NCBI GenBank assembly: GCA_016783745.1
Contig: JADHVZ010000002.1
Coordinates: 12,012 to 76,011 of the forward strand
DNA: 64,000 nucleotides
From: Candidatus Omnitrophota bacterium
GTDB taxonomy: Bacteria; Omnitrophota; Gorgyraeia; JAHIPI01
Direction: 5' to 3'
Shown here: positions 9,768 through 58,944 of the stretch, piece after piece
Numbering within the stretch: the first letter of the stretch is position 1
Layout of the letters: each line of letters starts with the position of its first letter
The notes under the pieces: generated by a model
Told to the model about the DNA's origin: nothing
Database searches by the model: none
What the model saw: only the letters and a program-made list of their open reading frames with translations
Position numbers and translations under genes: made by a program

Positions 9768-11327
9768 TTATTGGTCCAGTTCGATTGAAAGCGGCACATT
9801 GGCGCTTGACGTAAGATCTGCGCCTTTGAAGTCATCCTTCAGGATGTTGACCGTCATAAAGATGATAAGCTCTGTTTTTTCCACATACTGTTCGGTTTTC
9901 TTAAACCACCAGTCGCCTATTCCCGGGATATCGCCTAAAAACGGGACCTTGTTTTCGTAATCCACGTTATTTTCCTTGATAAGCCCGCCTATCATAAGGG
10001 TATCGCCGTCCCGCACCATGACCTGGGTCGCCGCCTGGCGCACCGAATACCTGGGAGCCGTTATGCCCCTCGCCGCATCAAGCACATCATACCCAAGAAG
10101 GTCTGATACCTCCGGTATCAGGTCAACTACGATGTCTCCCACATCATTGATGTGGGGAACGACAAAAAGTTTTATGCCAAGTTCCTTTTCCGTATATCCT
10201 GTTATCTCAATGGTGCCGGTATCAGGGTTACGCTCAAAGGTAGGGATGGCTATTATTATTCCTACAAGTATCGTGGCCGGTTTATTATTCAGTGTGGTAA
10301 CGCGCGGATTGGATACGATCTCGGTGTTCCTTCTGGATTTTAGATATTCCAGCACCGCCGCGAATTGAGAAAAATCAAGGGTTCCCATGGTAAAACTGCC
10401 TGTGGTCGCAAGAGGCATAGAGCTCATTGAAGTGGAGTGGAAGTCATCCGAAGGTACAGTACTCTGGTTTTCGAGTCCGCCGGTCTCAGCCCCCTTTCCT
10501 ATCGGTAAAAAATCACCCAACTCAAACTTTCCCAAGAGCCTCGAACCGGCCGTCTCAAAGGGGAATACCCATGGCCTGCTCGCGCCGGTTGCAGTGATCT
10601 TCGCATTCCAGTCAATACCAAGCTTCTCATCGCCGTCCAATGTGGTCTCTATGATCTTCGAGGAAATCAGGACCTGTTGCGTCTTCGCGTCCAGCTTGCC
10701 TATTACCCGCCTTATCTTGTAAAGGTTAGTCGGAATGTCAGTGACGATCAAGACATTCGTCCTCTCGTCGAATTTTATTTTATCTTTGCCGCGGTCGGTC
10801 AACATCTCTTTTATCGATTCCGCGACCTCCGCAGACTTAGCGTAATTAAGGGTGAACACCTCGGTAGTAAGCTCTTCCTGCTGGAGATTTTCGAGCGTAG
10901 TCACTCTTATGATGTTCTCATTTTTTTCATAAGCATAGCCGTAATTTTTGCAAATGATCTCAAGCGCTGTCTCCCAGTTTACGTTGCTTAATCTTATCGT
11001 TACAAATCCCTCAACGTCTCTTCCGGCTACAATATTGACACCGCTTTTTTCCGCCAGTACCCTCAATACTGTTTTTATGTCCGCGTCCTTAAAGTCTATG
11101 GTGATATTACCGGGCGCTATCTTCTTGGCAACCAATTTTTTTTCGGATGATGCCGCATCCTCAACCGGCGTGATGACTTTAGCGTCCTCTTCTGGGATGG
11201 GATCGCTGTCTTGAGGAACTTCTTCTTCAGCGTGACACGGGGCGCTGTCCATGTAAAAAAACGACATGGCCATAAATGAAAGAAATAAAACTATGACACC
11301 GGATAATAACATTTTCCCGCTTCTCAA
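9768..11327 (-). CDS. pilQ: Type IV pilus secretin PilQ
   Basis: 519 aa. It has a signal peptide and N0/secretin domains, including the secretin signature VSNPRVTTLNNKPATILVG. Confidence 0.85.
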   Translation of the reverse strand: MRSGKMLLSGVIVLFLSFMAMSFFYMDSAPCHAEEEVPQDSDPIPEEDAKVITPVEDAASSEKKLVAKKIAPGNITIDFKDADIKTVLRVLAEKSGVNIVAGRDVEGFVTIRLSNVNWETALEIICKNYGYAYEKNENIIRVTTLENLQQEELTTEVFTLNYAKSAEVAESIKEMLTDRGKDKIKFDERTNVLIVTDIPTNLYKIRRVIGKLDAKTQQVLISSKIIETTLDGDEKLGIDWNAKITATGASRPWVFPFETAGSRLLGKFELGDFLPIGKGAETGGLENQSTVPSDDFHSTSMSSMPLATTGSFTMGTLDFSQFAAVLEYLKSRRNTEIVSNPRVTTLNNKPATILVGIIIAIPTFERNPDTGTIEITGYTEKELGIKLFVVPHINDVGDIVVDLIPEVSDLLGYDVLDAARGITAPRYSVRQAATQVMVRDGDTLMIGGLIKENNVDYENKVPFLGDIPGIGDWWFKKTEQYVEKTELIIFMTVNILKDDFKGADLTSSANVPLSIELDQ

Positions 11328-15424: not shown

Positions 15425-16636
15425 TTACATCGTGATAATAGTCGATATTTTAAAGATCGGCAAAAACATGCAAATAACGATAGTACCTATGATCACTCCT
15501 AAAAAAGCGATGATTACGGGCTCTATTATGCTCGTCAACCCGCTTATGGCGGTATCTACCTCCGCGTCATAGAAATCAGCTATTTTAGAAAGCATCTTCT
15601 CGAGTTGACCGGTCTGCTCGCCAACATTTATCATCCTGACTACCATGGGAGGAAATACAGCGCTTTTCGAAAGAGGTTCGGCTATATTTTCTCCGTTTTT
15701 TATGCTTGCTCTTACGTTAGAAACGGCGCGCTCTATCACTTTATTGCCGGCTGTCTTGCCTACTATCTCAAGCGAGTTTAAGATCGGCACACCGCTTTTT
15801 ACCAGAGTGGAGAGTGTTCTTGTAAACTTACTGACAGCTACTTTTCTAAGTAATATACCTATTATAGGCATATTCAGTGTGAGTTTGTCGAATCGTAGAG
15901 CCCCTCTCTCTGTCTTTTTATACCGGGATATGAGTATCATAAAGACTGCCATTCCGGAAATGGTAAAAATGAAATACCTCCTTAAAAAATCGCTCACAGA
16001 TATAAGTACCTGGGTAGGCATGGGAAGCGCTGCGCCGAATCCTGCGAATATCTCCTTAAAAACAGGGATGACTTTTAAAAGTAAGATAGCCGTTATAACC
16101 ATCGCCATACCGGTGATGATGGCCGGATAGATCAGGGCCGACTTGACCTTCTTCTGGAGGATGCTCGTTTTTTCAAGGTATGTCGCCAGCCTGTCAAGGA
16201 TCTCATCAAGCATGCCGCTTGATTCACCGGCCCTTACCATATTCACAAATAAGCCGGAGAATACCTTCGGCTGCCTTGAAAGCGCCTCTGACAGACTGGA
16301 GCCGGTTTCAACATCATCCCTGATCCGGAGAATAGCGACTGAGAACCTTTTATTATCTAACTGCTCTCCTAATATATCGAGCGCGCTGACCAGAGGTATG
16401 CCCGCGTCAACCATTGTAGCCATCTGCCTGGAAAATATGACAATATCATCAAGCCCTATTTTTTTCTGGAAAAATGAGGATCCGCCCCCTGCCGATTCCT
16501 TGCTTTTCGTTAAGGAGACAATGACCAGGTTCTTTTCGCGCAATTTTTTTATGAGGGCGGGCCTGTCCGGGGCATCCAGCGCCCCGGTCACGGTCTTGCC
16601 GTCCTCACTCTTAGCCACATATTTGAATGTTGCCAC
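15425..16636 (-). CDS. pilC: Type IV pilus inner-membrane platform protein PilC (GspF family)
   Basis: 403 aa with two GspF repeats and three TM segments, in the conserved position downstream of pilB. Confidence 0.9.
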   Translation of the reverse strand: MATFKYVAKSEDGKTVTGALDAPDRPALIKKLREKNLVIVSLTKSKESAGGGSSFFQKKIGLDDIVIFSRQMATMVDAGIPLVSALDILGEQLDNKRFSVAILRIRDDVETGSSLSEALSRQPKVFSGLFVNMVRAGESSGMLDEILDRLATYLEKTSILQKKVKSALIYPAIITGMAMVITAILLLKVIPVFKEIFAGFGAALPMPTQVLISVSDFLRRYFIFTISGMAVFMILISRYKKTERGALRFDKLTLNMPIIGILLRKVAVSKFTRTLSTLVKSGVPILNSLEIVGKTAGNKVIERAVSNVRASIKNGENIAEPLSKSAVFPPMVVRMINVGEQTGQLEKMLSKIADFYDAEVDTAISGLTSIIEPVIIAFLGVIIGTIVICMFLPIFKISTIITM

Positions 16637-16640
16637 TCTG

Positions 16641-18362
16641 CTACCCCCCCGTAGTTATCCTCAATACCTCCTCTAATGTAGTATTGCCGTCTAAAAATTT
16701 TCTCAACGCGTTTTGCCTTAAAGTCTTCATCCCCTGTTTCATCGCGTATGCTTTTATCTGATCAGATGGCACGCGCCTTATCACCATATCCCTTATCGTG
16801 TCGTCTATGTTCAGTACCTCAAGTGTCCCCATGCGGCCGCAGTATCCTGTGTCGTCGCAGCGCTGGCAGCCTTTACCGGCAAAAAAATCCTTCGCGCCGG
16901 CATTTTCCAGCTCCGAACTGCCTATTCCCATTCTATCGAAAACTGATTTTGGAATGTCTACTTTTTTCTTGCAATCCGGGCATATCTTACGGCATAACCT
17001 TTGCGCGGCGACCAGGATAAGGCTTGAGGCTATCAAAAAAGGTTCTACTCCCATGTCTACCAATCTTGTGATCGAGCCGACCGCGTCATTTGTATGCAGT
17101 GTGCTCAATACCAGCTCGCCGGTCAAGGATGCCTTTATAGCTATATCGGCAGTCTCAAAATCACGTATTTCGCCTACCATTATTATGTCAGGGCTCTGCC
17201 TTAGGAGTCCGCGTAAGCCGTTGGCGAAAGTCAGGCCTATATCAGGATTGGCCTGGATCTGAGTAATTCCCTCGACCTGATATTCGACAGGATCCTCTAT
17301 CGTTATAATGTTTTTGGCAGCCGTATTAAGAGAGTTCAGGATAGAATACAGAGTCGTTGATTTTCCGCTGCCGGTCGGCCCGGTAAGCAGAATCATCCCG
17401 TAAGGCTTTTTGATGGCCTGGTTAAAAAGCTCAAGATTATCTTTTAAAAAACCGAGCTTTTCGAGGCCGACTCCTAAATTGGCTTTATCAAGTGCCCTCA
17501 AAACGACTTTACTGCCGTACGCGATGGGTAAGACGGAGACTCTGAAATCGATCTCCTTGCCCTCCAGCCTTATCTTGAATCTTCCGTCCTGCGGCAGCCT
17601 GGACTCAGTTATGTCAAGATTTGACATTATTTTTAATCTTGCCAGTATGGCATTCTGATTTCGCTTTGGCATGACCAGGGCTTCCTGAAGCGCGCCGTCG
17701 ATCCTGTATCTTATCCTTAGCTCTTTCTCGCAAGGCTCGATGTGGATATCGCTTGCTCTTTTTTTCAGGGCCTCGACCAGTATCAGGTCGACCATTTTGA
17801 CGATAGGGGCTTTTTTGCTCTCCTCGGTAAGCTGCGTGACATCGATTTCTTCTTCCTCGACTACCTCAATATCCTCTTCGCCTCCCCCATCTTCAGCCTC
17901 CTTGACAAGCTCTGCCATTTCGCTATGGCCGCCGTAATAACCTGCTATAGCTTCCTTTATATCCTGTTCTGTGGCTATCACAGGGTCTATTCTATATTTG
18001 GTCAGCATCCCTACGTCATCGATCGCGAATATATTCAGCGGGTCAGCCATCGCCAGAGTCAACGTCTTTCCGATCGCGGAGACTGGCAGGACATTATACT
18101 GCCTGGCAGTCCTCTCCGGAACTATTTTTAATACGTCGGGGGCTATCTTGTATTTGGAAAGGTTGATCGGCGGGATATTCAACTCCTGGCTCAACAGCAC
18201 CATAAGGTCTTTCTGAGAAATAAGGCCCTGCAGTATCAGTATCTCGCTTATGCTGCACTTTCTCTTTTTTTGTTCTTTGATGGCAAGATCAAGCTGCTCT
18301 TTTGTGATATATTTATTTGTCAAAAGCAGCTCCACAAATTTGTCCCTGAGTGATTTTTTCAT
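16641..18362 (-). CDS. pilB: Type IV pilus assembly ATPase PilB (GspE family), copy 1
   Basis: The ORF track extends it to 18416, but the start is better placed at MKKSLRDKF (the ATG at 18362 overlaps the upstream TGA as ATGA). It has an N-terminal MshEN-like domain, Walker A GPTGSGKST and a tetracysteine CxxC…CxxC motif. Confidence 0.9.
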   Translation of the reverse strand: MKKSLRDKFVELLLTNKYITKEQLDLAIKEQKKRKCSISEILILQGLISQKDLMVLLSQELNIPPINLSKYKIAPDVLKIVPERTARQYNVLPVSAIGKTLTLAMADPLNIFAIDDVGMLTKYRIDPVIATEQDIKEAIAGYYGGHSEMAELVKEAEDGGGEEDIEVVEEEEIDVTQLTEESKKAPIVKMVDLILVEALKKRASDIHIEPCEKELRIRYRIDGALQEALVMPKRNQNAILARLKIMSNLDITESRLPQDGRFKIRLEGKEIDFRVSVLPIAYGSKVVLRALDKANLGVGLEKLGFLKDNLELFNQAIKKPYGMILLTGPTGSGKSTTLYSILNSLNTAAKNIITIEDPVEYQVEGITQIQANPDIGLTFANGLRGLLRQSPDIIMVGEIRDFETADIAIKASLTGELVLSTLHTNDAVGSITRLVDMGVEPFLIASSLILVAAQRLCRKICPDCKKKVDIPKSVFDRMGIGSSELENAGAKDFFAGKGCQRCDDTGYCGRMGTLEVLNIDDTIRDMVIRRVPSDQIKAYAMKQGMKTLRQNALRKFLDGNTTLEEVLRITTGG

Positions 18363-20101
18363 CAAACTGCCCCTATGTCCTGGTCTCCGACAGTAAGCCG
18401 CACGACCTCTTCCCATGTCGTTATCCCGCCAAGCGCTTTCTTCAGCCCGTTCTGCCTGAGGGTCGTCATGCCTTCTTTTCTCGCGGCTTTCTTTATTTCA
18501 TGTTCCTGGGCCATACCAGCTATCAACTCCTTTATCTTAGGCGTTAACACAAGTGTCTCCGCTATTCCGATCCTGCCCTTATATCCGGTTTGAAAGCAGT
18601 GCTTACAGCCTCTTCCCCTGAAGAGCGTCACTTTATCTTTGCTTATATCCATACTCACATCCTTGAAGGCCGACTTGCTTACCTCATATTCCTCTTTACA
18701 GCTCGGGCATATCTTTCTTGCCAGCCGTTGCGCGGCAACTAAAAATATAGAGGATGTGATTAAAAACGGCTCTATCCCCATATTTACCAATCGCACCACT
18801 GAACCGGCAGCGGTAGTAGTATGCAGTGTGCTTAACACTAAGTGTCCGGTCAGCGCCGACTTAATAGCTATATCAGCGGTATCATAATCTCTTATCTCAC
18901 CCACCATTATTACATCGGGGTCCTGCCTCAAAATACTGCGCAAGGCCCCGGCAAAGGTAAGGCCGATACCCGGCTTTATTGTCACCTGGTTTATTCCGCG
19001 CAGGTCATATTCTATGGGGTCTTCGACCGTCACTAAATTCTTATCAGGAGTATCTATAGTCTTAAGGATCGAATACAATGTCGTCGTTTTTCCGCAGCCG
19101 GTCGGACCGCACACCACTATCATCCCGTGCGGCCTCTTAGATTCCCTTTTTATATCCTCCAGGGGCTTGTCTTCAAAACCCAATTTATCCAGATCGAGCA
19201 TGGCCTGGTCTTTATCAAGGACTCTCAGCGCGGCTTTTTCTCCGATACTCGAAGGTAAAACCGATATTCGGAAATCGACCTCTCTATTATGGATCTTTAT
19301 CTTGAATCTTCCATCCTGAGGGAGCCTTCTTTCGGCTATCTTCAGGTCGGACATGACCTTCAACCTCGATACTATTGCTTCATGCATAAAACGGGGAGGG
19401 CTCTTAGCCTCTCTTAATACCCCGTCTATCCTGTAGCGGATTCTTAGCTTATTCTCCATTGGCTCTATCAGTATATCGCTGGCTTTGACCCTTACGCCGT
19501 CGGACAGAATGAGGTTAGTCACCTTGACAATAGGCGTCTCTTGCGTCATCCGGATGAGATCGGTAGTAGCAAGGCTGTCTTTGCGCTCGTGCTCCACCAC
19601 CATCTCCACTTTATCATCGGCCTGCGCCATACCGGCCATTATCTCTTCAATGGCCTCGTGGGCGGCTTCACCGTAGTACTGGTCTATCGCCGACTGGATG
19701 TCTTTATCTGTTGTTATCAATACGCCTATCTGAAAACCGGTCAATGCCTTTATCTCATCTATGGCGAAGACATTGAGGGGATCGGCCATTGCCACTGTCA
19801 ATGTATTGCCTATCTTAGAAATAGGTATGATCTGGAAGTGTTGGGCGGTTTTGCGCGGTATTAATTTTGCGACGGTCGGATCTATCCTATACCTCGCGAG
19901 ATTTATAGGAGGGACTCCCAGTTCTTCAGAGAGAACGACCATCAGGTCTTTTTTGTCGACAAAGCCCTTTTCGGATAAAATATCGCTAAGCTTACCGCCT
20001 TTTCCCCTCTGAATCTTTAGGGCTTCATCGAGTTTTTCCGGAGTGATAAGGCCCTTTTCAAGCAATATCTTATTTATACGCGCTTTTAGCGGTAAGGCCA
20101 T
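18362..20101 (-). CDS. Second PilB/GspE-family secretion ATPase (PilB paralogue, MshE-like)
   Basis: 579 aa. The N-terminus carries an MshEN-type motif, RINKILLEKGLITPEKLDEALKIQ. It also has Walker A GPTGCGKTT and a tetracysteine motif. Confidence 0.9.
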   Translation of the reverse strand: MALPLKARINKILLEKGLITPEKLDEALKIQRGKGGKLSDILSEKGFVDKKDLMVVLSEELGVPPINLARYRIDPTVAKLIPRKTAQHFQIIPISKIGNTLTVAMADPLNVFAIDEIKALTGFQIGVLITTDKDIQSAIDQYYGEAAHEAIEEIMAGMAQADDKVEMVVEHERKDSLATTDLIRMTQETPIVKVTNLILSDGVRVKASDILIEPMENKLRIRYRIDGVLREAKSPPRFMHEAIVSRLKVMSDLKIAERRLPQDGRFKIKIHNREVDFRISVLPSSIGEKAALRVLDKDQAMLDLDKLGFEDKPLEDIKRESKRPHGMIVVCGPTGCGKTTTLYSILKTIDTPDKNLVTVEDPIEYDLRGINQVTIKPGIGLTFAGALRSILRQDPDVIMVGEIRDYDTADIAIKSALTGHLVLSTLHTTTAAGSVVRLVNMGIEPFLITSSIFLVAAQRLARKICPSCKEEYEVSKSAFKDVSMDISKDKVTLFRGRGCKHCFQTGYKGRIGIAETLVLTPKIKELIAGMAQEHEIKKAARKEGMTTLRQNGLKKALGGITTWEEVVRLTVGDQDIGAV

Positions 20102-20110
20102 ATTGTGATT

Positions 20111-20560
20111 TTATTTTTTTTCGTAGTATTGGTTTAAGGCGTTGTTTATATCAGTCATAGTACTTACGAAGGCCTGGACCTTACAGCCTGACATAAGCTC
20201 TATATCCTCGACTGCCTGCAAATTGAGAGGATTCGCCATAGCAATAGTCATGGTATTTCCTATTTTATCTACAACGATCAGACAATACTGCCTGGCGACA
20301 TTTTCCGGTATTATCTTGATCAGGGCCGGATCCACCTCATAGCTCTGAAGCGGTAGGTATGGAAAGCCATACTGGATAGTTATGGCCTGAGCTATCTGCT
20401 CTTCAGTCACGTATCCTAATCCCACAAGTATCGTGCCTAATAGCCCGCTCTTTTGCTTCTGGATCTTTAACGCCTTGTCCAACTGGTCTTTCTTTAATAT
20501 TCCCTTTTCAAGCAGAAGCTCTCCCAGTTGCTTGGATACTACTCTTCTTATCGGCGACAT
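20111..20560 (-). CDS. Standalone GspE-N / MshEN-domain protein, a putative c-di-GMP receptor
   Basis: 149 aa with no ATPase domain. It contains two tandem 24-residue segments, QLGELLLEKGILKKDQLDKALKIQ and LLGTILVGLGYVTEEQIAQAITIQ. Both fit the MshEN c-di-GMP-binding motif (R)LGxxLLxxGxIxxxxLxxALxxQ. Confidence 0.75.
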   Translation of the reverse strand: MSPIRRVVSKQLGELLLEKGILKKDQLDKALKIQKQKSGLLGTILVGLGYVTEEQIAQAITIQYGFPYLPLQSYEVDPALIKIIPENVARQYCLIVVDKIGNTMTIAMANPLNLQAVEDIELMSGCKVQAFVSTMTDINNALNQYYEKK

Positions 20561-20573
20561 ATTTACCTATTCC

Positions 20574-21644
20574 TTAAAGGCTTCCCTTTGCGTATTTCGC
20601 GAGCTCGCTCGGATCTGAAGACCGCGCGAAAGCGTCATCGTATGAAATAATGCCTTTTTTATAAAGCGTGGCAAGCGCCTGGTTCATCGTGCGCATGCCT
20701 TCCCTTTGCCCTGTCTGTATCTGAGAATATATCTGATGGACTTTAGATTCTCTTATCAGCGCCCTCACTGCGGGATTGGCGATAAGGATCTCATTCACCA
20801 GCACCCTGCCCGGCGGCGTTTTTTTGGGCACCAGAAGCTGCGCTATTATTCCTACTAACACAAAAGATAACTGCGTCCTTATCTGCTGCTGCTGATGTGA
20901 CGGAAACACATCTATGATCCTGTTTACGGTCTGCACGCTATCTGATGTATGCAGAGTAGCTAACACGAGGTGGCCTGTCTCCGCGATTATAAGCGCGGCC
21001 GCTATAGTCTCAAGGTCCCGCATTTCCCCTATGAGTATGACATCCGGATCCTGCCTCAAAACGTACTTAAGCGCCGCGCCAAAGGTATGGGTATCGTGAT
21101 GGACCTCTCTCTGGTCTATTATAGCTTTTTTATTTTTAAAAACAAATTCTATCGGGTCTTCGATGGTTATGATATGGCATTCCCGCTCATCATTGATAAA
21201 ATCGACCATTGCCGATAAGGTCGTGGATTTTCCTGTTCCGGTTGCCCCTGTTATCAGCACCAGCCCCTTAGGTTTACGGCATAACGCCTGCATTACGCCC
21301 ATGGGAAGGCCCGCTTCCTCAAAACCCATTACCTCAAACGGGATAAGCCTGATGGCTATGCCCACGTTTCCCCGCTGAAGGAATACATTGACTCTGAACC
21401 TGCAAAGGTGGCTTATCTCAAAAGAAAAATCGAGCTCTTTTTCCTTTTCGAATATCGCGATCTGTTCTTCTGTTAACATCCCGTAAGCTATTTTTTTCGT
21501 TTCTTCGGGCGTAAGTACCTTCTCGTCCGCGTTAACCAGCTTTTCATCGATCCTCATCTTCGGAGGATAGTTGGCGCCAATATGAAGGTCGGATGAATTT
21601 TTCTCTAACAGTTGCTTTAGGATGACGTTTATATCGATCGACAT
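20574..21644 (-). CDS. pilT: Twitching-motility retraction ATPase PilT
   Basis: 356 aa with Walker A GATGTGKST, the PilT AIRNLIRE-like motif (ALIRESKVHQI) and a short N-domain. Confidence 0.9.
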   Translation of the reverse strand: MSIDINVILKQLLEKNSSDLHIGANYPPKMRIDEKLVNADEKVLTPEETKKIAYGMLTEEQIAIFEKEKELDFSFEISHLCRFRVNVFLQRGNVGIAIRLIPFEVMGFEEAGLPMGVMQALCRKPKGLVLITGATGTGKSTTLSAMVDFINDERECHIITIEDPIEFVFKNKKAIIDQREVHHDTHTFGAALKYVLRQDPDVILIGEMRDLETIAAALIIAETGHLVLATLHTSDSVQTVNRIIDVFPSHQQQQIRTQLSFVLVGIIAQLLVPKKTPPGRVLVNEILIANPAVRALIRESKVHQIYSQIQTGQREGMRTMNQALATLYKKGIISYDDAFARSSDPSELAKYAKGSL

Positions 21645-21662: not shown

Positions 21663-23072
21663 TCAAATGATCTTATTTTTGCCCTGCGTTTTCGCGGCGG
21701 CAACCGAATCCGCGGCTTTCTTCTTGAGTGATTCCGAAGAAGAACCGTCTATGGGATTCTCGCTGACCCCGCCGCTTATTGTCAGGCGCCTTCCTGATCC
21801 GCTACCCAGTTCAATATTTTCAACAGTTTTTCTTACGGCCTCGGCTATTCTATAAGCCTCTTTTTTATTCTTCTCCGGAAGTAATAAAGCGAATTCATCT
21901 CCGGAAAGCCGCGCTGCCCTGCCTATTTGAGTGACATGCTCTTCTAGCACGGAGGCTATCATCTTAAGCGCCTTCTCCGTCACGAGCTCGCCGTTATCAC
22001 TTCTGAACTTATCGAATCCGTCGACATTAAACATGACATACGAACAAGGCCTCTGATAAAGGACACCTCTTTTGATCTCCTCACCAAGCCTTAAGGTGAC
22101 ATAGGCCTCGTTGTATAAGCCGGTGAGATCATCCTTTATGGCCAACTCCCTGGCCTTTCTGATAAGTATCTCTCTGTCATAAGCTATAGCGGCTTGTTTA
22201 GAGAAGATCTTCAGCACATCCATATCGTCGGAATTAAATGTATAGTCACTTTCCCTGCTTCCCGCGAGCATCATCCCGACCGCCTTACCGCGCGATATGA
22301 TGGGAAATGCGGCGAAGTTTTCAACGCCAACGTCTTCCATGAACATTTCCGTATCCTTCGAGCGCTTAGTGCCGGAATCGGCATATACAATAGCGCCTTT
22401 TAATAAAGCTTCCCCGAGTAAGTCTTTCCCGGGACGTATTTTGAGATCGCGAAGCTTTTCGTTTGTAAGATTATTCTCTACGGCCGATTCCAGGGTCCCG
22501 GCTTCGATAGGCCTCGGTAAATAGATCACCGCGTAACCCGCGTTCATAATCTCGACGGTCTTATCGGCTATAAGAGCCATAACGCCATCAAGGTCAGACG
22601 CCATGGAAATTTCTTCGCTTATTTGCAGCAAGCTGGATAAGGCAAGGACTTTTTTATGGATCTCTATATTTATCAATTTCGTCTTTTCCCCATACGAGTT
22701 AAGCTCATCCATGTCCCGCCTGATACGTGATGTCAGGCTGTTGATCGAACTCCCAAGCTCGCCTATCTCGTCTTCGGAAGATACGGAGATTCTGCGGTCG
22801 AACATCCCTCCGGCTATAAGTTTTGATTCTATCGCCATATCGATGACCGGCATTATAAGCTGCCGCGCCAGCACAAGGCCTAACAGAGCCAAGATGACAC
22901 TAAAGAAAAGGATCCACGATGTCTCTATTATATCTCCTGTGGGGGGAAATATCTTATCCCGGAGGAGGTAGGCTGCTACAAGCAAAGGTATCATTGCCAT
23001 AAGGCAAAAAGCAACCGTAAATTTGCGGCGTATCCCTTTTGGCGCCAGGGATAATTTTTTGAGAAGATCCAT
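21663..23072 (-). CDS. Membrane-anchored HAMP-GAF-GGDEF protein, a putative diguanylate cyclase with an SGDEF active-site variant
   Basis: 469 aa. An N-terminal TM pair is followed by a HAMP-like linker, a GAF domain and a C-terminal GGDEF domain (…DGFDKFRSDNGE…RLSGDEFALLLP). Confidence 0.85.
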   Translation of the reverse strand: MDLLKKLSLAPKGIRRKFTVAFCLMAMIPLLVAAYLLRDKIFPPTGDIIETSWILFFSVILALLGLVLARQLIMPVIDMAIESKLIAGGMFDRRISVSSEDEIGELGSSINSLTSRIRRDMDELNSYGEKTKLINIEIHKKVLALSSLLQISEEISMASDLDGVMALIADKTVEIMNAGYAVIYLPRPIEAGTLESAVENNLTNEKLRDLKIRPGKDLLGEALLKGAIVYADSGTKRSKDTEMFMEDVGVENFAAFPIISRGKAVGMMLAGSRESDYTFNSDDMDVLKIFSKQAAIAYDREILIRKARELAIKDDLTGLYNEAYVTLRLGEEIKRGVLYQRPCSYVMFNVDGFDKFRSDNGELVTEKALKMIASVLEEHVTQIGRAARLSGDEFALLLPEKNKKEAYRIAEAVRKTVENIELGSGSGRRLTISGGVSENPIDGSSSESLKKKAADSVAAAKTQGKNKII

Positions 23073-23179: not shown

Positions 23180-24277
23180 CTAAAAAACCGATCTGTGCAT
23201 ATCTACATTGATCACAAGTGCCAGAGATAACCATGTAGTTATAAGGCTTGACCCCCCATAGCTGATGAGAGGCAGGGGCAGTCCTACGACCGGCATAAAA
23301 CCGGCAGCCATTGCGATGTTGACTATGACCTGGAAGGATATCATCGCGGCTACGCCTGAGACGATAAGCCTGCCGTAAATATCGTTTGACCTGCTCGCGA
23401 CAGATAATATGCGGATTATAAGCAGACAGAAAAGCAGTATCACCAAAAAACTGCCCGCAAAGCCCCATTCCTCTCCTACTACGGAAAATATAAAATCAGT
23501 ATGGCGTTCCGGTAAAAAATTCAGCTGATTCTGAGTCCCGCTTGTCCACCCTTTTCCGAACAACCCTCCTGAGCCGATAGCGATCTTTGACTGGATCACA
23601 GTGTAACCTGCCCCCAGAGGATCCATATTGGGATTCATAAATACAAGCAGTCTTCTTTTTTGATAATCCTTTAAGAAATTCCAGAAAAGTGGTGACGCTA
23701 TGAGACCCGCCAATATCGTCCCAATAATAAACCTCATTGGCGTCTCCGAGCACAGCAAGATGGCAAATAGTATGGGCAGGAGCGCTATGGCGCTGCCAAG
23801 ATCCGGCTCCTTGAATATGAGCAGGCAGAAAAGGCCTGTTATGCCTAATGCCGCAAGAAATGTGCGTATGTCTCTTATGGAATGACGGTTATTGCCTAGA
23901 AAATATGACAATGTCAATATCATGGCGAGTTTAGCAAACTCGGATGGCTGGAATGTCAGCCATCCGAAGCTCAGCCATCTGCGCGCGCCCATCCTTGATC
24001 CACCGATAAAAAGTATCAGGATAAGCGCTAAAGCGATCAAGACGTAAAAAAGGTAAGACCAGTCAAGTATGCGGCGAAAATCTATATTGATGATGACGAC
24101 AAGCATCACAATGCTGACCGCCAGCCACGCAACCTGCCTGAACATGAAGTTGATCCCCTTTATCTCCCCCATGCCGCGTGAGGCGCTATAAAGAAAAAGA
24201 AGGCCTATTCCGAATATAAGTAACGGCAATATGATCAGAAAAGGGTCGAAGCCTCGTTTATAACTTATATTGTACAT
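23180..24277 (-). CDS. rodA: Rod shape-determining protein RodA (SEDS family)
   Basis: 365-aa polytopic FtsW/RodA/SpoVE protein. It lies immediately downstream of mrdA in the mreBCD-mrdA-rodA cluster. Confidence 0.9.
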   Translation of the reverse strand: MYNISYKRGFDPFLIILPLLIFGIGLLFLYSASRGMGEIKGINFMFRQVAWLAVSIVMLVVIINIDFRRILDWSYLFYVLIALALILILFIGGSRMGARRWLSFGWLTFQPSEFAKLAMILTLSYFLGNNRHSIRDIRTFLAALGITGLFCLLIFKEPDLGSAIALLPILFAILLCSETPMRFIIGTILAGLIASPLFWNFLKDYQKRRLLVFMNPNMDPLGAGYTVIQSKIAIGSGGLFGKGWTSGTQNQLNFLPERHTDFIFSVVGEEWGFAGSFLVILLFCLLIIRILSVASRSNDIYGRLIVSGVAAMISFQVIVNIAMAAGFMPVVGLPLPLISYGGSSLITTWLSLALVINVDMHRSVF

Positions 24278-24278
24278 C

Positions 24279-25997
24279 CTACAGGTAGTCCAGTTCTTTT
24301 AACTTTTTGAAAATTTTAGCGGCGATCTTGCAGGGTTTATCCCCGCCACTTCCGCCATACTCTAAAAAGACTACTAACGATATTTTGGGCCTTCCTGCCG
24401 GTGAGTAACCCGCAAACCAGGCGTGAGTGCCGGCCGGCCCGGCCTGAGCTGTCCCGGTCTTTCCGGCTATCTCTATGCCGGGAACACCGGCATGTTTTGC
24501 TGTCCCTTGATCATCCTCTACAGCCCGCCTGGTTCCTTCTTTTATCACATTAAAAGTCCCGCCTGAGATATTGAGCCAGCTCTTATGGGAACCGGATACA
24601 TCGATATCGCCTATTTTTTTTACAATAAACGGACTGATCATCTGGCCTTCAAGGGCAAGCGCGTTTATCATCCTGGCTATCTGGATCGGCGTTACCAGAA
24701 GATAGCCCTGGCCTATGGCATAATTTACGGTATCGCCCTCGTACCACTTTTCCATTTTTTCGCGCTTTTTCCATGACCTGCCCGGCACGATTCCTTCTGA
24801 CTCATACGGAAGGTCTATCCCGGATTTGCTTCCGAATCCATAAAGTGCGGCGAAATGCTCTATTTTATCTACGCCTGTCTTCCTGCCGGCCTTATAAAAA
24901 AATACGTTACATGAGTTCTTTATGCCTTCCGCCATAGTCTGCAGTTTATGGCCTGATTTTTTCCAGCAGCTGAATGTTCTGTAGCCGAGCGCATAAGAGC
25001 CTTTACAATCCAGTTGCTCATCATGTTTTATACTTCCGGAATCAAGCGCGGCCGAAGCAGTTACTATCTTAAAAACGGAACCCGGGGGATATGTGCCGGA
25101 AATGGCTCTGTTGACCAGAGGATAATCACTTCTCCCGAGCAGATCCGTCACCTTGCGGTAGCCGGATGATGAAACAAATATATTAGGATTAAAATCCGGT
25201 TTACTTACAAGCCCGATCACTTCCCCGTCCTCGGCATCCATGACCACTACAGCGCCATTATGTTCTTCCAGCAGTGAATCTATAAACGCCTCAAGCTCGA
25301 TATCTATGGTAGTAGTAATATCCCTTCCCTTACTTGGCTCCCTTATGCCGAGCACCCTTAATTCCCTGCCTTTTGCGTCGACCTCTATCTGCATGCCGCC
25401 GCTTTCACCTTTAAGATAATCGTCGTAATAAAATTCGATGCCGCCTCTTCCTACAAGATCCATCGGCTTGTATCCGTACTCCCTCAAGACATCGAGTTCC
25501 TCCTCGGATATTTTGCCCACGTACCCTGCTATATGCCCGGCTACATTGGAATTCGGATAATGCCTTGTAGGATAGGTCTGTATGATGAGCCCGGGGAAAT
25601 CCACGCTTCTCTCAGAGATCGATATAGCGGTTTCTTTGCCTATATCTTTCTTGATAATAAGGGGAATGAATGGCGCGACAAAGTCTTCTTTCAGCTTTTT
25701 CTTTAAATCCGCCTCGGACAGCTCTAACAATCCGCTTAAACGGCTTAGGCCTTTATCGTCGACATTAAACTCCTGAGGTATCACGGCGCAATCAAACGCC
25801 AGACGATTGCCGGCTAAAAGCTTACCGTTACGGTCATATATATTTCCGCGGGGCGCGATCAGCGGGAGGAGCCTTATCCTGTTTCTTTTTGATAGTTCGG
25901 AATAATGGTAACTCTGCAGGCACTGGATGTAAAATAGGCATATGACCAACGCGATGAAGAAAAACACGATCATAATTTTCATAATGCGTATCCTCAT
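24279..25997 (-). CDS. mrdA: Penicillin-binding protein 2 (elongasome transpeptidase)
   Basis: 572 aa. It has a PBP dimerisation domain and a transpeptidase domain with SxxK (STFK-like), SxN and KTG motifs. Confidence 0.9.
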   Translation of the reverse strand: MRIRIMKIMIVFFFIALVICLFYIQCLQSYHYSELSKRNRIRLLPLIAPRGNIYDRNGKLLAGNRLAFDCAVIPQEFNVDDKGLSRLSGLLELSEADLKKKLKEDFVAPFIPLIIKKDIGKETAISISERSVDFPGLIIQTYPTRHYPNSNVAGHIAGYVGKISEEELDVLREYGYKPMDLVGRGGIEFYYDDYLKGESGGMQIEVDAKGRELRVLGIREPSKGRDITTTIDIELEAFIDSLLEEHNGAVVVMDAEDGEVIGLVSKPDFNPNIFVSSSGYRKVTDLLGRSDYPLVNRAISGTYPPGSVFKIVTASAALDSGSIKHDEQLDCKGSYALGYRTFSCWKKSGHKLQTMAEGIKNSCNVFFYKAGRKTGVDKIEHFAALYGFGSKSGIDLPYESEGIVPGRSWKKREKMEKWYEGDTVNYAIGQGYLLVTPIQIARMINALALEGQMISPFIVKKIGDIDVSGSHKSWLNISGGTFNVIKEGTRRAVEDDQGTAKHAGVPGIEIAGKTGTAQAGPAGTHAWFAGYSPAGRPKISLVVFLEYGGSGGDKPCKIAAKIFKKLKELDYL

Positions 25998-26506
25998 AAT
26001 GCGGTCTCACTTAATCCAAGCACTCTCGTCAGGAAAGCGAAGATCCATATGGCAAGAAAAGAGTTTAACAATGATATCAAGACAACGGGAGAATTAAATA
26101 AGAGCCTCGATCCGGCCCAATGTGACACGGAGGGCCCCCGCGCGCTGACGATGATGAAATATGCCGAAAGGACGATAAAAGACAGTGTGAACGTCAGGAT
26201 GAAGTGCGTGATCATACTGTCTCTATAAAATTTGGTGTTGCTCTTGCCTATTATGTATCCGCCGGCGGCGAAAAGCATGGCATTCAGGCCGAATAGCCTT
26301 ATGGAGAAAATATCAAGCAGTAGGCCGCAAAAAAAACCCGTCTCAGCGCCGAACTTTCCGCTGGAAAAAAGAGCGAAAAAAGCGGTTACTATGATCAAGA
26401 TGTTCGGCTTCACGGTGCCTGATCTTAAAAGATCGCTGATCACCAGTTGTAAAAAAAATCCCAGCAGTATTACTGTGTAGGCTTGCCCGCGTTTTACTCT
26501 ATGCAT
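25994..26506 (-). CDS. mreD: Rod shape-determining protein MreD
   Basis: 170-aa polytopic membrane protein between mreC and mrdA. Confidence 0.7.
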   Translation of the reverse strand: MHRVKRGQAYTVILLGFFLQLVISDLLRSGTVKPNILIIVTAFFALFSSGKFGAETGFFCGLLLDIFSIRLFGLNAMLFAAGGYIIGKSNTKFYRDSMITHFILTFTLSFIVLSAYFIIVSARGPSVSHWAGSRLLFNSPVVLISLLNSFLAIWIFAFLTRVLGLSETAL

Positions 26507-27267
26507 AGGACTTCTTCTAATTTCGAAAACTTACCCGAAGGCTGTATGATAGCGAATTTATACAACCTTCCCTTTTCCTTTGCCACTTTTATTATTTCGC
26601 CTATCAATAGGCCCTTTGGATAGATACCGCCCATGCCGGAAGTCAGGACCTTATCCCCGGCGCTGACTTCTGATTCCAGCGAAAGATATATGAGTTTACA
26701 CTCGCCCTGGGCGGTGCCTGTTAAAAGTCCGGTCTCGCGGCTGTTCTGCACTATCGCGCCCACCTTTGAGTCTATATCATTGATCAGCATGACTTTACTC
26801 ATAGCCTCGCCGGGCTCCCTGATCCTTCCTATAAGCCCATTTCCGGATATGACTACCATATCATTCCTGATGCCGTCTCCCCTGCCTTTATCTATGAAAA
26901 CAACGGACGACCAGTTATTCGGATCCCTTCCTATGACAGAGGCCGGGATAGACTGCTTTTCGATCTCCTTCTTGAAACCCAGAAGTTCGCGCAGCCGCTC
27001 ATTCTCAAGGGCGATCTCATCCAGTTTTACGGTCTTGTTCTGTAATTCCACGATCCTTCGCTTAAGCCCTGTCTTCTCGCTGTCTGCGTAAGGCAGGCGC
27101 GAGATCTTTTCAAAATAATCAAATAAGTTATCGAGAGCTTTAAGCGGAGATCTTGCGGTGCTATAGATGGCTCTTTTGAGATGCTTGACAGGCTCCGGGG
27201 GGGCGAACATGGACCAGATAAGAATCGCGGTTATAACGATTACGACGATTAACCTGGGCCTCAACAC
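26494..27267 (-). CDS. mreC: Rod shape-determining protein MreC
   Basis: 257 aa with an N-terminal TM segment, a coiled-coil and a C-terminal beta domain. It lies downstream of mreB. Confidence 0.85.
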   Translation of the reverse strand: MLRPRLIVVIVITAILIWSMFAPPEPVKHLKRAIYSTARSPLKALDNLFDYFEKISRLPYADSEKTGLKRRIVELQNKTVKLDEIALENERLRELLGFKKEIEKQSIPASVIGRDPNNWSSVVFIDKGRGDGIRNDMVVISGNGLIGRIREPGEAMSKVMLINDIDSKVGAIVQNSRETGLLTGTAQGECKLIYLSLESEVSAGDKVLTSGMGGIYPKGLLIGEIIKVAKEKGRLYKFAIIQPSGKFSKLEEVLCIE

Positions 27268-56399: not shown

Positions 56400-57125
56400 T
56401 CATTTTTGCTCTTTATAAAAAACCTTGATATCGTCGAAAAACGCCTCGGCGCTGGAGCCCGTACTGTCTGAATCACACATAAAAGCTATCGCGCCGATCT
56501 TCGCCTTTGGTTTTGATTTAAACGCGAGGAGATAATCCACGTAAATATTTCTTTCCTCAGTAACCCATTTATCCTCCGCGGACGGCCCGGATTCCACTAC
56601 CATAAGTTTAATATTGTCGGAATACGGGCTGGAAGATATCTCACCCGCCTCGAGATCCCTGGCCCAGACATACTCCAGGACTTTGGTATTGGAAAAAAAG
56701 ATCGCCGGAAATATCACGTACACACGCGCCGCGAAATCATCCTCTTCCTGATTTAGAAGATCCTCCGGAAGCCTTTTGTCGGGAAAATCTCCGACGCGCC
56801 ATTTCCACGAGATAAAAGGCCTGCCCTTGACATCGAGATTCATCTTGTGATAGAGGGCTGAGCAGGAGCGCCTACTCATGGCGCGTACATATGACTCATC
56901 ATCTTTAGTCTCAATGGAATAGTCTACCCTCTTGTGTAATATTTTTTTATCCCACTCTTTAAGCGAGTCATCGGAAGAGAACGGAAAATACTTTATTACG
57001 TCTACTTTTTTTTCGGGAAAAATATGGGATGCGAGATCAAAGCGGATGGATATAAAAACAAGGAAGATTGCGAAAACGGTTATAACCACATATATCGTTA
57101 AGCGCTTATTTTTTTGTGCGCACAT
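56400..57125 (-). CDS. Membrane-anchored, probably periplasmic protein with weak resemblance to the DUF3047 family
   Basis: 241 aa with an N-terminal signal anchor and then a W-rich beta domain (WKWRVGDFP…AARVYVIF…). The family assignment is from memory only. It overlaps the upstream GGDEF-PilZ gene by 20 nt. Confidence 0.5.
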   Translation of the reverse strand: MCAQKNKRLTIYVVITVFAIFLVFISIRFDLASHIFPEKKVDVIKYFPFSSDDSLKEWDKKILHKRVDYSIETKDDESYVRAMSRRSCSALYHKMNLDVKGRPFISWKWRVGDFPDKRLPEDLLNQEEDDFAARVYVIFPAIFFSNTKVLEYVWARDLEAGEISSSPYSDNIKLMVVESGPSAEDKWVTEERNIYVDYLLAFKSKPKAKIGAIAFMCDSDSTGSSAEAFFDDIKVFYKEQK

Positions 57126-58944
57126 ATTCGTCTATGAGCTCTTTATCACTCTGGCTGATCCATATGAATGAAATGGCGACATTAAAACATTTTCCCCCGT
57201 CAGCCTCACAGCGTAAGACCTTTCCGATCGCCGCTATAAGCCTGTCAGAGGATGGTATCCTTATACGTAATTCAAGGAAGGATCCCATCGGCACTCTTTT
57301 ATTTGAAACAAATTTCACGCCGGTAGCGCTGATATTCTTTGAATAGCTGTCTTCTACCACATTATAGGCGGGTTTCAAGTCATCGGAAAGCCGCACATAA
57401 TCTACGGCGCAGTCTGTATGCAGCCGCATGTAAGTCCTGTTCTCCGGGCCTCTGTAATCGTCACTGTTGATCATTTTGTCTAACTCATTGGTATTGAGCG
57501 CCCATTCTCCGCCCTTGGCATAGACGATCTTATTGACAAACATACGCCTTATCAGCGACTCCACCCGCACGGGGATGCCGCTACAGGCGGCAAACATCTT
57601 CTTTTTAAAATCCTGAGATATTAACTCGCATGAAAACACAGCATCAAAGAATTCGGACACATCATTATCTTTGAGGGGTTTTAACTCCAAAACATCACAA
57701 GTCTTGGCAAGGTCATTTTCATTCATAAATATGGAAAAAGGTGTCCTTGGCGCCTGTTTTATATCTACCATGTCGTCGGAAATGCTGCCTGCGATAAGCA
57801 TCCCCCATTCTGTGCCGCGCTCTTTGATGGCCCCTTTTATTATTTCCAGGCTGCCGCTGTCTATCCAGATAATATCGTCGGCCAGCACAGGGATGATCTT
57901 TATCTTAAGCTCTTTCATAAATCGCAGAAAGGCGTTAACAATATCCTCGTCTTTCAGGTCTTCGGCCTTGGGAGATTTATGCCCTGAATATTTTACGGGA
58001 AGATCCCGTATCTTGCGCACCATCGAAAAAAGAGCCGCTTTATGGGCATCATCCAGCGAATTGAGCGCGTCTAATACTTTACCGGCATCCATAAACTCTA
58101 AAAAACTGCTGAAGGCGTCAGCTATAGATCCATACTTTTTATTGATATCTTCTCTGCTGCACATAAGAAGCAGGCTGGGATAGATCTTGTCCGGGCTGAA
58201 AAGCTCAAGCATAAATCTTGTCTTGCCTATACCCTGCGGGCCCTTGACAAGTACGAATTTTTTTGCTCCTTTTTCCGCGTCCTTATATGACGCCTGGATG
58301 TGCGCCAATTCCTTCTGCCTGTCGATAAACTTTTTGCACGGAAGGGCGTTGGCCAGCAAATCCCTGCCTCTGACCTCTGCCATAATGTCCTTCACTGTTG
58401 AGACCCTGTTCCTACCCGTCCTTTTTGAAGAATACAGAGCCTGGTCAGCCTTTTCCAGGAGGCCGCTGGCGCTATCGGCGTCATCGGGGTATACGGCGAG
58501 GCCCATACTCATCGTCACACTTATGTTCTTTGCCCCCCGCTTGTCCTCTACTTTATTATCCTTGATCAATTTCAATATTTTACCGGCTGTATCAACGGAC
58601 TCATCGAGCCCTTTATCAAAAAATACTAAGGTAAATTCATCGCCGGCGTATCTGACTATGGTAGCTTCCTCACCGATGACGCTCCTTAAAATATCCGCGA
58701 TGTTCACAAGCACTTTATCGCCGCTGAGATGACCATAGGAATCGTTGATTTTTTTCAGGTTGTCACAGTCCATCATGAAGATAGAGATGCTTTTGTTTTC
58801 ATTTTTTGCCCTTGAGATCTCCCTTATGAGGACCTTATTGAGGTACCGCCTGTTGAACAAGCTGGTTAGATCATCGACGTAAGCCAGATCTACACTCTGC
58901 GGCTTGCTTTCCGCGCCGGTCCCTTTATGATTTTCTTCTGGCAT
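57106..58944 (-). CDS. Multidomain c-di-GMP signalling protein: degenerate GGDEF (AGDEF), a P-loop STAND/AAA-like NTPase, and a C-terminal PilZ
   Basis: The N-terminal GGDEF domain (DDLTSLFNRRYL…DCDNLKKINDSYGHLSGD…RYAGDEFTLVF) is followed by Walker A LVKGPQGIGKTRF and Walker B-like IIPVLADDIIWID. The C-terminus carries the PilZ motifs RTYMR and NISATG (RxxxR … D/NxSxxG). Confidence 0.75.
   Translation of the reverse strand: MPEENHKGTGAESKPQSVDLAYVDDLTSLFNRRYLNKVLIREISRAKNENKSISIFMMDCDNLKKINDSYGHLSGDKVLVNIADILRSVIGEEATIVRYAGDEFTLVFFDKGLDESVDTAGKILKLIKDNKVEDKRGAKNISVTMSMGLAVYPDDADSASGLLEKADQALYSSKRTGRNRVSTVKDIMAEVRGRDLLANALPCKKFIDRQKELAHIQASYKDAEKGAKKFVLVKGPQGIGKTRFMLELFSPDKIYPSLLLMCSREDINKKYGSIADAFSSFLEFMDAGKVLDALNSLDDAHKAALFSMVRKIRDLPVKYSGHKSPKAEDLKDEDIVNAFLRFMKELKIKIIPVLADDIIWIDSGSLEIIKGAIKERGTEWGMLIAGSISDDMVDIKQAPRTPFSIFMNENDLAKTCDVLELKPLKDNDVSEFFDAVFSCELISQDFKKKMFAACSGIPVRVESLIRRMFVNKIVYAKGGEWALNTNELDKMINSDDYRGPENRTYMRLHTDCAVDYVRLSDDLKPAYNVVEDSYSKNISATGVKFVSNKRVPMGSFLELRIRIPSSDRLIAAIGKVLRCEADGGKCFNVAISFIWISQSDKELIDEYVRTKK

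Follow-up and report, generated by a model that had tools for sequence, protein, structure and literature searches.

A free-standing MshEN protein, a candidate c-di-GMP receptor, encoded beside the paired type IV pilus extension ATPases of Omnitrophota

Gene order and conservation around S

We analyzed a window of 64,000 nucleotides from a Candidatus Omnitrophota genome, in which a type IV pilus (T4P) gene cluster lies on the minus strand in the order D, pilT, S, pilB1, pilB2, pilC, three pilin genes and pilM, with the mreBCD-pbp2-rodA genes located upstream of the cluster. The gene under study, S (20111..20560, stop codon included), runs from an ATG start to a TAA stop (20560 to 20111) and encodes a protein of 149 aa. 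Directly upstream of S lies pilT, encoding the retraction ATPase (20574..21644; TIGR01420, 472.9 bits), and D heads the cluster (21663..23072). Downstream are pilB1, encoding a T4P extension ATPase of 579 aa (18362..20101; TIGR02538, 638 bits; Pfam T2SSE and MshEN), pilB2, a second extension ATPase paralogue recognized by profile searches (16641..18362; 573 aa as called), and pilC, encoding the platform protein (15425..16636; Pfam T2SSF in two stretches), whose position after pilB2 is conserved. This arrangement confirms the placement of S between pilT and a pilB gene that had been proposed in an earlier reading made from the letters of the window and its open reading frames (hereafter the sequence-only reading). 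The pilB2 open reading frame could extend to 18416. Short plus-strand ORFs over S (20142..20342 and 20433..20618) were taken to be spurious shadows of the conserved minus-strand gene.

The S and pilB1 genes are closely spaced. A 9-nt spacer (20102..20110, minus strand) lies between the end of S and the first codon of pilB1, and translation across the junction reads ...YYEKK*NHNMALPLK, so that in the window the two genes share a reading frame and are parted by TAA plus 9 nt. We found no terminator-like site separating pilT, S and pilB1 on the minus strand, and pilB1 lacks an obvious Shine-Dalgarno sequence ahead of its start in the window.

To place S among its relatives, we carried out a word-indexed protein search, which returned 1746 matches. 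The best 120 of these 1746 were 147-154 aa long apart from a few variants and shared 65-100% identity with S; every source-named entry among them came from Omnitrophota/Omnitrophica MAGs, annotated as "hypothetical protein" or "PilB". When GTDB species were scanned, each represented by a single genome, relatives were encoded in 376 genomes, and the best 80 of these 376 loci all belonged to Omnitrophota, some of them titled automatically as "uncultured Planctomycetia".

Synteny was compared over 79 loci, each with a different S sequence. Wherever the contig was long enough, the genes stood in the order D-pilT-S-pilB1-pilB2(-pilC), with 44 complete cases, and the conserved position of S beside pilB, which the sequence-only reading had asked to see in relatives, was thereby established. 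In about 12-14 lineages or loci pilT is missing from the cluster, leaving D-S-pilB1-pilB2 with S retained. The linkage of S, pilB1, pilB2 and pilC was invariant over an identity range of 39% to 100%.

At 66 loci we compared the reading frames of the two genes and found pilB1 in frame with S in 24, at +1 in 18 and at +2 in 24. The gap between the two genes was mostly -4 to +20 nt (range, -4 to +507 nt), some pairs overlapping by 1-4 nt. Because the frames are random across the 66 loci, the shared frame in the window is a matter of chance. S is an independent gene and, judging from the spacing, probably translationally coupled to pilB1.

We further examined the evolutionary constraint on S. Compared with its counterpart at locus L009, S showed a pN of 0.069 and a pS of 0.742, a pN/pS ratio of about 0.09; pN and pS are given instead of dN/dS because synonymous sites were saturated. 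In six of seven comparisons, S changed less than the N-domain of PilB1. The median identity to the window was 65% for S, similar to the ATPase cores of PilB1 (64%) and PilB2 (68%), whereas within the helical bundle it was 64% for S and 46% for PilB1. The C-terminal (MshEN_C) half of S was as conserved as the binding half (65%). Purifying selection on S is strong.

The MshEN domain of S and its ligand-site residues

Profile searches divided S into two parts. NCBIfam NF053729 ('c-di-GMP_motif, MshE-related') matched residues 11-62 at 61.2 bits (cutoff, 38), and Pfam PF05157 matched residues 64-147 at 68.3 bits (cutoff, 23.1). The sequence-only reading had described S as consisting only of two tandem 24-aa motifs, which proved incorrect: residues 64-147 (20120..20371, minus strand) form a second subdomain, an alpha/beta fold of the MshEN_C or T2SSE_N1 type, recognized both by PF05157 and by the strands of an AlphaFold2 model. 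This subdomain opens with a clade signature, QYGFPYLPL, that is kept among the aligned S homologues. S is therefore a whole MshEN/GSPII domain, comprising a helical MshEN_N together with MshEN_C (T2SSE_N1), which has an alpha/beta fold, and is equivalent to the entire N-terminal MshEN module of a PilB.

The same reading had noted that no ATPase domain is attached, and our Pfam search agrees, since no PF00437 (T2SSE ATPase) match was obtained for S and the chain stops at residue 149. Of the 564 positions of the PilB model TIGR02538, only positions 2-138 could be aligned to S. S is not a PilB/GspE/MshE secretion ATPase, as the C-terminal T2SSE domain with its Walker A and B motifs is absent, nor is S itself a multi-GSPII ATPase of the (MshEN)n-T2SSE type, as a stop codon parts it from pilB1. 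S also matched NCBIfam NF008411, in the MshEN region of NfrB.

An AlphaFold2 model of S, built from a 57-sequence alignment, reached a pLDDT of 87.9 and a pTM of 0.77. It contains helices at residues 3-18, 24-37, 41-47 and 53-64, followed by three strands (94-100, 103-108 and 127-132) with helices. The top Foldseek match of the model was PilF GSPII-A (TM 0.84), and c-di-GMP-bound MshE (5HTL) was matched with a TM of 0.76-0.81 and an rmsd of 2.4 A. PilF GSPII-B and the N-domain of Xanthomonas PilB were also matched, and the weaker matches included PDB 2BH1 and 4PHT. Models, motifs and fold all place S in the MshEN domain family.

The two 24-aa motifs quoted in the sequence-only reading were confirmed within the 149-aa frame. 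By motif alignment, motif I occupies residues 11-34 (QLGELLLEKGILKKDQLDKALKIQ; 20459..20530, minus strand) and motif II residues 40-63 (LLGTILVGLGYVTEEQIAQAITIQ; 20372..20443, minus strand). Between them, the alignments place a five-residue spacer, KQKSG (residues 35-39; 20444..20458, minus strand), as long as the spacer of Vibrio cholerae MshE (VcMshE; PMC5013675). Ligand-site columns were read, with VcMshE numbering, from an alignment of 79 distinct S sequences, 66 PilB1 N-domains and 58 PilB2 N-domains. The glycine at position 3 of motif I (G11 in VcMshE) was present in 78 of 78 aligned S orthologues, and the glutamine at position 24 of motif I (Q32), the glycine at position 3 of motif II (G40) and the glutamine at position 24 of motif II (Q61) were each present in 79 of 79. 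A basic N-terminal patch is also kept in S, with R6 and K10 invariant.

The first position of each motif is different in character. Among the 79 orthologues, motif I opens with Gln in 64 and Thr in 13, not with Arg, and motif II opens with Leu in 78; the window copy has Gln and Leu, respectively. The first residue of motif I agrees with neither of the published patterns, [RKPN] and (R/K/L), whereas the Leu of motif II fits the extended (R/K/L) consensus only and not [RKPN]. With position 1 of motif I excepted, the tandem motif (R/K/L)hGxxhhxxGhhxxxxhxxxhxxQ with its five-residue spacer is present in S. When position 1 was ignored, this relaxed tandem motif was found in 58 of 79 S sequences, in 0 of 66 PilB1 and in 0 of 58 PilB2. 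The match is far beyond chance (61.2 bits with NF053729), but the earlier statement that the motifs match at nearly every position needs correcting for position 1, which is Arg in neither motif.

Published work on MshEN domains indicates how much weight these residues can bear. In MshE, the backbone amides of the motif glycines hydrogen-bond N7 and O6 of the guanines of c-di-GMP (Wang 2016, PMC5013675), and the G11L and G40I variants showed no ligand-induced stabilisation, binding being abolished (PMC5013675). XpsE, a natural non-binder, carries G11V and G40L, and isolated MshEN and MshEN_N domains bind c-di-GMP by themselves (both PMC5013675). In PilF GSPII-A constructs, replacing Gly by Ala in motif II lowered the affinity about 10-fold (PMC12002112). 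As for the first position, PilF GSPII-B binds c-di-GMP at 6 nM with Lys and Leu there, and its affinity drops when these residues are mutated back to Arg; its authors therefore widened the consensus to (R/K/L) and proposed a hydrophobic first residue as a predictor of very high affinity (PMC11731258).

On these grounds, binding of c-di-GMP by S is likely, and its ligand site appears to be under selection. An intact consensus is insufficient to prove binding because PilF GSPII-A still fails to bind when its consensus is restored, owing to its N-cap and inter-subdomain contacts (PMC12002112). The proposal that S is a free-standing MshEN protein and a candidate c-di-GMP receptor is nevertheless supported by models, motifs and fold alike, which make S a strong candidate.

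Degenerate sites in the motors and in D, and variants of the S module

We examined the same ligand-site columns in the two extension ATPases. PilB1 carries its own complete N-domain, but its site is degenerate (RIN.. / KLS.. ..E), as is that of PilB2 (KFV.. / SIS.. ..E). The motif I glycine, whose loss the sequence-only reading had missed, was absent from all N-domains of both proteins, being replaced in PilB1 (0 of 66 with Gly) by Thr, Ser, Asn, Met, Ile, Ala or Leu and in PilB2 (0 of 58) by Ile, Val, Leu, Ala or Thr. The motif II glycine was kept in 12 of 66 PilB1 (Ser in 49) and in 33 of 58 PilB2. The motif I glutamine was common to 64 of 66 PilB1 and 47 of 58 PilB2, and that of motif II was found in 2 of 66 PilB1, where Glu or Gly mostly stood instead, and in 28 of 58 PilB2. 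The combination of an intact S with degenerate PilBs extends to distant loci at 39-49% identity (L091, L092 and L094), whereas PilBs of other phyla, such as those of Geobacter (5ZFR, 6OLJ), read RLG...Q/RLG...Q. From these substitutions, PilB1 and PilB2 seem to be no longer capable of binding c-di-GMP.

The replacement of the motif-end Gln by Glu was considered as proof of non-binding by the PilBs and was downgraded. We give this change little weight because alone it merely weakens binding: the Q190E and Q218E variants of GSPII-B still bind, with a shift from 6 nM to 450-800 nM (PMC12207366).

Protein D is a membrane HAMP-GAF-GGDEF protein (21663..23072, minus strand; Pfam) with a catalytically degenerate GGDEF domain. 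In the window copy the signature reads SGDEF, and relative to PleD, D327 is replaced by N, N335 by R and D344 by E. In an alignment-based read-out, none of 67 D orthologues had the canonical GGDEF residue set; the signature was degenerate in about 42 of the 67, often as SGDTF, GDNEF or DRDTF, and no RxxD I-site was found in the 67. On the PleD residue check and the 67 orthologues, we rejected D as an adjacent diguanylate cyclase supplying local c-di-GMP. D is better viewed as a putative sensor in the membrane whose degenerate GGDEF domain serves for output or interaction, recalling FimX. Elsewhere in the window, positions 57106..58944 encode a GGDEF-AAA_16-PilZ protein that looks canonical (142 bits), so the organism probably makes c-di-GMP.

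Several relatives join the S module to other domains. In a protein of 765 aa (P0134), an S-type module is followed by ~45 aa of low-complexity linker, then by a degenerate MshEN module and the ATPase. Its first module best matches S (135 bits versus 97 for the PilB1 N-domain), the remainder best matches PilB1 (573 bits versus 494 for PilB2), and the gene that follows best matches PilB2 and is itself followed by pilC. These scores and this gene order identify P0134 as a natural fusion of S with PilB1 (S::PilB1) that occupies the same slot. Such a fusion is a classic indication that S and PilB1 work together, and it ties the S system to the known (MshEN)2-4-T2SSE architectures. In other loci the same slot holds an S with an extra helical bundle, only the binding bundle being duplicated (P0050, P0124 and locus L093), and at L094 a second stand-alone MshEN lies between pilB2 and pilC. 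S-type modules are also fused to PilZ (P0158, P0162) and to a DnaA-type ATPase (P0170). These further variants point to selection on c-di-GMP capacity.

Possible role of S and comparison with known systems

We favor, with some confidence, a reading in which S, acting in trans, is the detached subunit through which the T4P extension motor of Omnitrophota (PilB1/PilB2) senses c-di-GMP; S would correspond to the first N-terminal module of a PilB with two such modules. S and pilB1 would share a transcript and probably be coupled in translation. The four-helix bundle of S would take one c-di-GMP through the two hG...Q motifs, and the liganded protein would join PilB1, and possibly PilB2, whose N-domains are without the key glycines. 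This association may control the engagement of the extension ATPase with the PilM/PilC platform and, with it, the building of pili. We infer here that S binds the ligand and touches PilB1, and also the sign of its regulation; the sign is assumed to be activation by analogy with MshE and PilF, in which ligand binding promotes extension, adhesion and twitching (PMC11656802; PMC11731258). Regulation of the neighboring ATPases in trans, as the sequence-only reading had suggested, is thus the most plausible reading, but the partner is likely PilB1, as indicated by the tight coupling and the natural S::PilB1 fusion, and not PilT, which is absent in about a dozen lineages.

A more elaborate version of the sensing reading, which we regard as tentative, is that c-di-GMP sensing has left the pilus motors in Omnitrophota and that one shared, detachable MshEN subunit, S, has the only functional c-di-GMP site and docks reversibly on PilB1 and/or PilB2, licensing which extension ATPase, or a PilB1/PilB2 hetero-hexamer, works. 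Degenerate D would serve as a signal-dependent anchor for S, giving a three-part sensor-adaptor-motor system that is analogous to FimX-PilZ-PilB but built from other parts. If true, it would offer a natural system for control of the PilB hexamer in trans by MshEN/N1 domains.

The main rival to the sensing-module reading is a role as a brake or decoy, which we consider unlikely. Here S would be controlled by c-di-GMP and would compete with the PilB N-domains for docking on PilM/PilC, or cap PilB, so that extension is blocked until c-di-GMP changes the conformation of S. S does share its fold with the PilB N-domain, it is encoded between the antagonistic motor genes pilT and pilB, GspE N1 domains dock on GspL, a PilM homologue (2BH1 and 4PHT are among the weaker fold matches of S), and other protein inhibitors of PilB, such as CpiA, are on record (review PMC11656802). 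However, the linkage of S to pilB persists without pilT, and the clade-specific QYGFPYLPL linker of S differs from the ELGVPPINL of PilB, which argues against simple mimicry. In addition, the covalent S::PilB1 fusion and the (MshEN)2-4-T2SSE architectures fit a module added in cis or trans better than a competitor.

Slightly less probable still is that the conserved motif residues of S serve folding or protein-protein contacts. The top structural match of S, PilF GSPII-A, is a natural non-binding module in which consensus alone is insufficient (PMC12002112), position 1 of S motif I is non-canonical, and the neighboring GGDEF protein D is degenerate. Set against this, the non-binding GSPII-A, XpsE and the local PilB1 and PilB2 have lost the Gly and Gln contacts, whereas S keeps them; isolated MshEN and MshEN_N domains bind the ligand alone (PMC5013675); and the bundle-only duplication (P0050) and the S-type PilZ fusions point to c-di-GMP biology.

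The sequence-only reading had also raised the idea that S might buffer c-di-GMP, that is, act as a soluble sponge with no specific protein partner. S is small and soluble, and its site is probably of high affinity, but it is invariantly located directly upstream of pilB1 in a tightly coupled pair, a fusion with PilB1 exists, and the MshEN_C half is conserved at 65%, equal to the binding half; we found no support for buffering, which we regard as highly improbable. As for the idea that S is a 5' fragment left by pseudogenisation or splitting of a third pilB, or that readthrough of its in-frame TAA turns it into the front of a longer PilB, the shared frame in the window and the lack of an obvious Shine-Dalgarno sequence ahead of pilB1 weigh little against the 24/18/24 frame distribution and gaps of -4 to +507 nt at 66 loci, the 147-154 aa length of the best 120 homologues apart from a few variants, a pN/pS of about 0.09 and the complete N-domain of PilB1 itself, which together refute it as a general explanation and leave it a negligible probability.

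Known systems share parts of the arrangement proposed for the sensing subunit. With MshE (Vibrio cholerae, 5HTL) and PilF GSPII-B (Thermus thermophilus, 8PDK), S shares the two-subdomain fold (Foldseek TM 0.69-0.81) and the tandem 24-residue motifs with a 5-residue spacer, and with GSPII-B also the Leu at position 1 of motif II. However, motif I starts with Arg or Lys in MshE and GSPII-B and with Gln or Thr in S, and those domains are covalently joined to a T2SSE ATPase, whereas S is a separate polypeptide.

Among the ATPases with an (MshEN)2-4-T2SSE architecture are Thermus PilF, Deinococcus Dgeo_0623 and Clostridium Cthe_1107 (Wang 2016 Table S4, PMC5013675). S and PilB1 together reproduce their content of a binding module, a non-binding module and an ATPase, and PilF likewise mixes binding and non-binding modules (PMC12002112). 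The difference is that here the architecture is split over two genes across a phylum-level lineage, and that the non-binding module comes first in PilF, whereas in Omnitrophota the binding module comes first and is detached.

In the FimX-PilZ-PilB system of Xanthomonas and Pseudomonas (7LKM, 7LKO), the N-domain of PilB is non-binding and the c-di-GMP input comes through a separate receptor, as proposed for S. That system includes a degenerate GGDEF protein, comparable to D, and the fold of S matches the N-domain of Xanthomonas PilB. However, the receptor there is a degenerate EAL domain bridged by PilZ, whereas the putative receptor S is an MshEN domain and no PilZ adaptor gene is present in the S cluster; the likeness is one of analogy and not homology. 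In E. coli NfrB, MshEN is a local c-di-GMP input module, as S may be, although there it is joined to a glycosyltransferase and has a dedicated, active cyclase, DgcJ, whereas the neighbor of S, D, is catalytically degenerate.

MshEN proteins without an ATPase are not new in principle, as shown by PA3740 and by isolated MshEN constructs that bind in vitro (PMC5013675). PA3740 of Pseudomonas aeruginosa combines MshEN with a divergent T2SSE_N1 and is ATPase-less like S; the supplement of Wang 2016 (PMC5013675) lists it as a c-di-GMP binder with experimental support and a role in swarming. Its N1 part is highly diverged and its lineage is beta-/gamma-proteobacterial, and the literature yielded no description of its linkage to a pair of pilB genes with degenerate sites. 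In the searchable literature, which leaves most subscription journals outside its scope and so gives weak evidence of absence, we found nothing specific on a characterised stand-alone MshEN protein or on PilB or c-di-GMP in Omnitrophota. No description was found there of a phylum-wide syntenic split of sensor and motor, of systematic site loss in both cis domains (PilB1 and PilB2), or of a counterpart to the S::PilB1 fusion.

The control of PilB-type motors by c-di-GMP at their flexible N-terminal domain is an acknowledged open problem (PMC11656802). A sensing domain that occurs as a separate, conserved polypeptide beside degenerate copies in the motors would be a natural "split" system, in which sensor and motor can be separately purified, titrated and mutated. 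HMM-based annotation would call PilB1, which still obtains 52 bits from the c-di-GMP motif model, a c-di-GMP binder and leave S, the real candidate, a "hypothetical protein"; with S, genome surveys gain a further class of receptor.

Omnitrophota are bacteria with small cells that for the most part have not been cultured, and pili are thought to be important for their possibly host-associated lifestyle. A dedicated pilus switch would therefore be relevant to their ecology. Short proteins consisting of MshEN only are abundant in sequence space.

The GGDEF proteins

The pilus cluster (D-pilT-S-pilB1-pilB2-pilC) is headed by D, a membrane HAMP-GAF-GGDEF gene at 21663..23072 on the minus strand. 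Both its position and the degeneracy of the catalytic residues in its GGDEF domain are kept across the lineage, in the window and in the orthologues at loci L005-L089. With the reference diguanylate cyclase PleD as the numbering guide, the counterpart of N335 is Asn in none of these orthologues, the counterpart of D344 is nearly always Glu, and the GGDEF signature is frequently replaced by SGDTF, GDNEF or DRDTF. An I-site was looked for in D and the same orthologues and was absent. D may be a sensor or scaffold and not a cyclase.

Elsewhere in the window, a 612-aa protein (57106..58944, minus strand) has three parts: a GGDEF domain (142 bits), an ATPase region of the AAA_16/STAND-like type and, at the C-terminus, a PilZ domain. 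Its GGDEF domain looks canonical, with an AGDEF signature and the DxD, KKIND and GH residues all present. It is a predicted cyclase that carries its own c-di-GMP receptor domain.

Gene packing and synteny

The genes pilT-S-pilB1-pilB2-pilC are tightly packed throughout in the window, with gaps of 0-13 nt. A possible 5' extension of pilB2 (18362..18416) would add 18 codons reaching into pilB1 and give 591 aa; gene callers and orthologues favor the start at 18362 (573 aa), which leaves a one-base overlap with the pilB1 stop codon.

The pilus cluster lies directly downstream, on the same strand, of the cell elongation genes mreB-mreC-mreD-pbp2-rodA (23180..27267 and upstream). This synteny is kept in distant Omnitrophota (also L001, L009, L091 and L094), and some relatives (L005 and L007) have a radical-SAM gene between rodA and D. 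Many GTDB representatives carrying the Omnitrophota-type operon at 60-86% identity (L010, L022, L025, L030 and others) are titled "uncultured Planctomycetia/Planctomycetales bacterium"; these titles look like automatic placeholder taxonomy.

Additional copies and fusions of the putative sensor

In the distant Omnitrophota relative at L094, pilB2 and pilC are separated by a second MshEN-only gene (10034..10486, plus strand; 150 aa) whose motifs are mostly intact; this lineage therefore possesses a pair of free-standing sensors alongside its two PilBs. The metagenome-assembled genome JAQUQN01 (isolate STD1_50) contains two differing pilT-S-pilB1 loci, L026 and L087, whose S proteins are 70% and 68% identical to that of the window; either the pilus system is truly duplicated there or the bin is mixed. 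Two S variants of 212-215 aa, P0050 and P0124, have an additional helical c-di-GMP bundle at the N-terminus, and P0050 (L093, 6001..6639) occupies the usual S slot, in the order D-S-pilB1-pilB2-pilC.

The protein search also recovered S-type MshEN domains joined to other domains. In P0170 (454 aa), labeled DnaA by JGI, the partner is the ATPase domain of bacterial DnaA (PF00308, 221 bits), a fusion that hints at a possible c-di-GMP input to replication initiation in some uncultured lineage. P0158 (288 aa) and P0162 (723 aa) join a PilZ domain to MshEN and thus each contain two distinct c-di-GMP receptor domains; P0162 additionally carries a DUF7305 and adhesin-like region.
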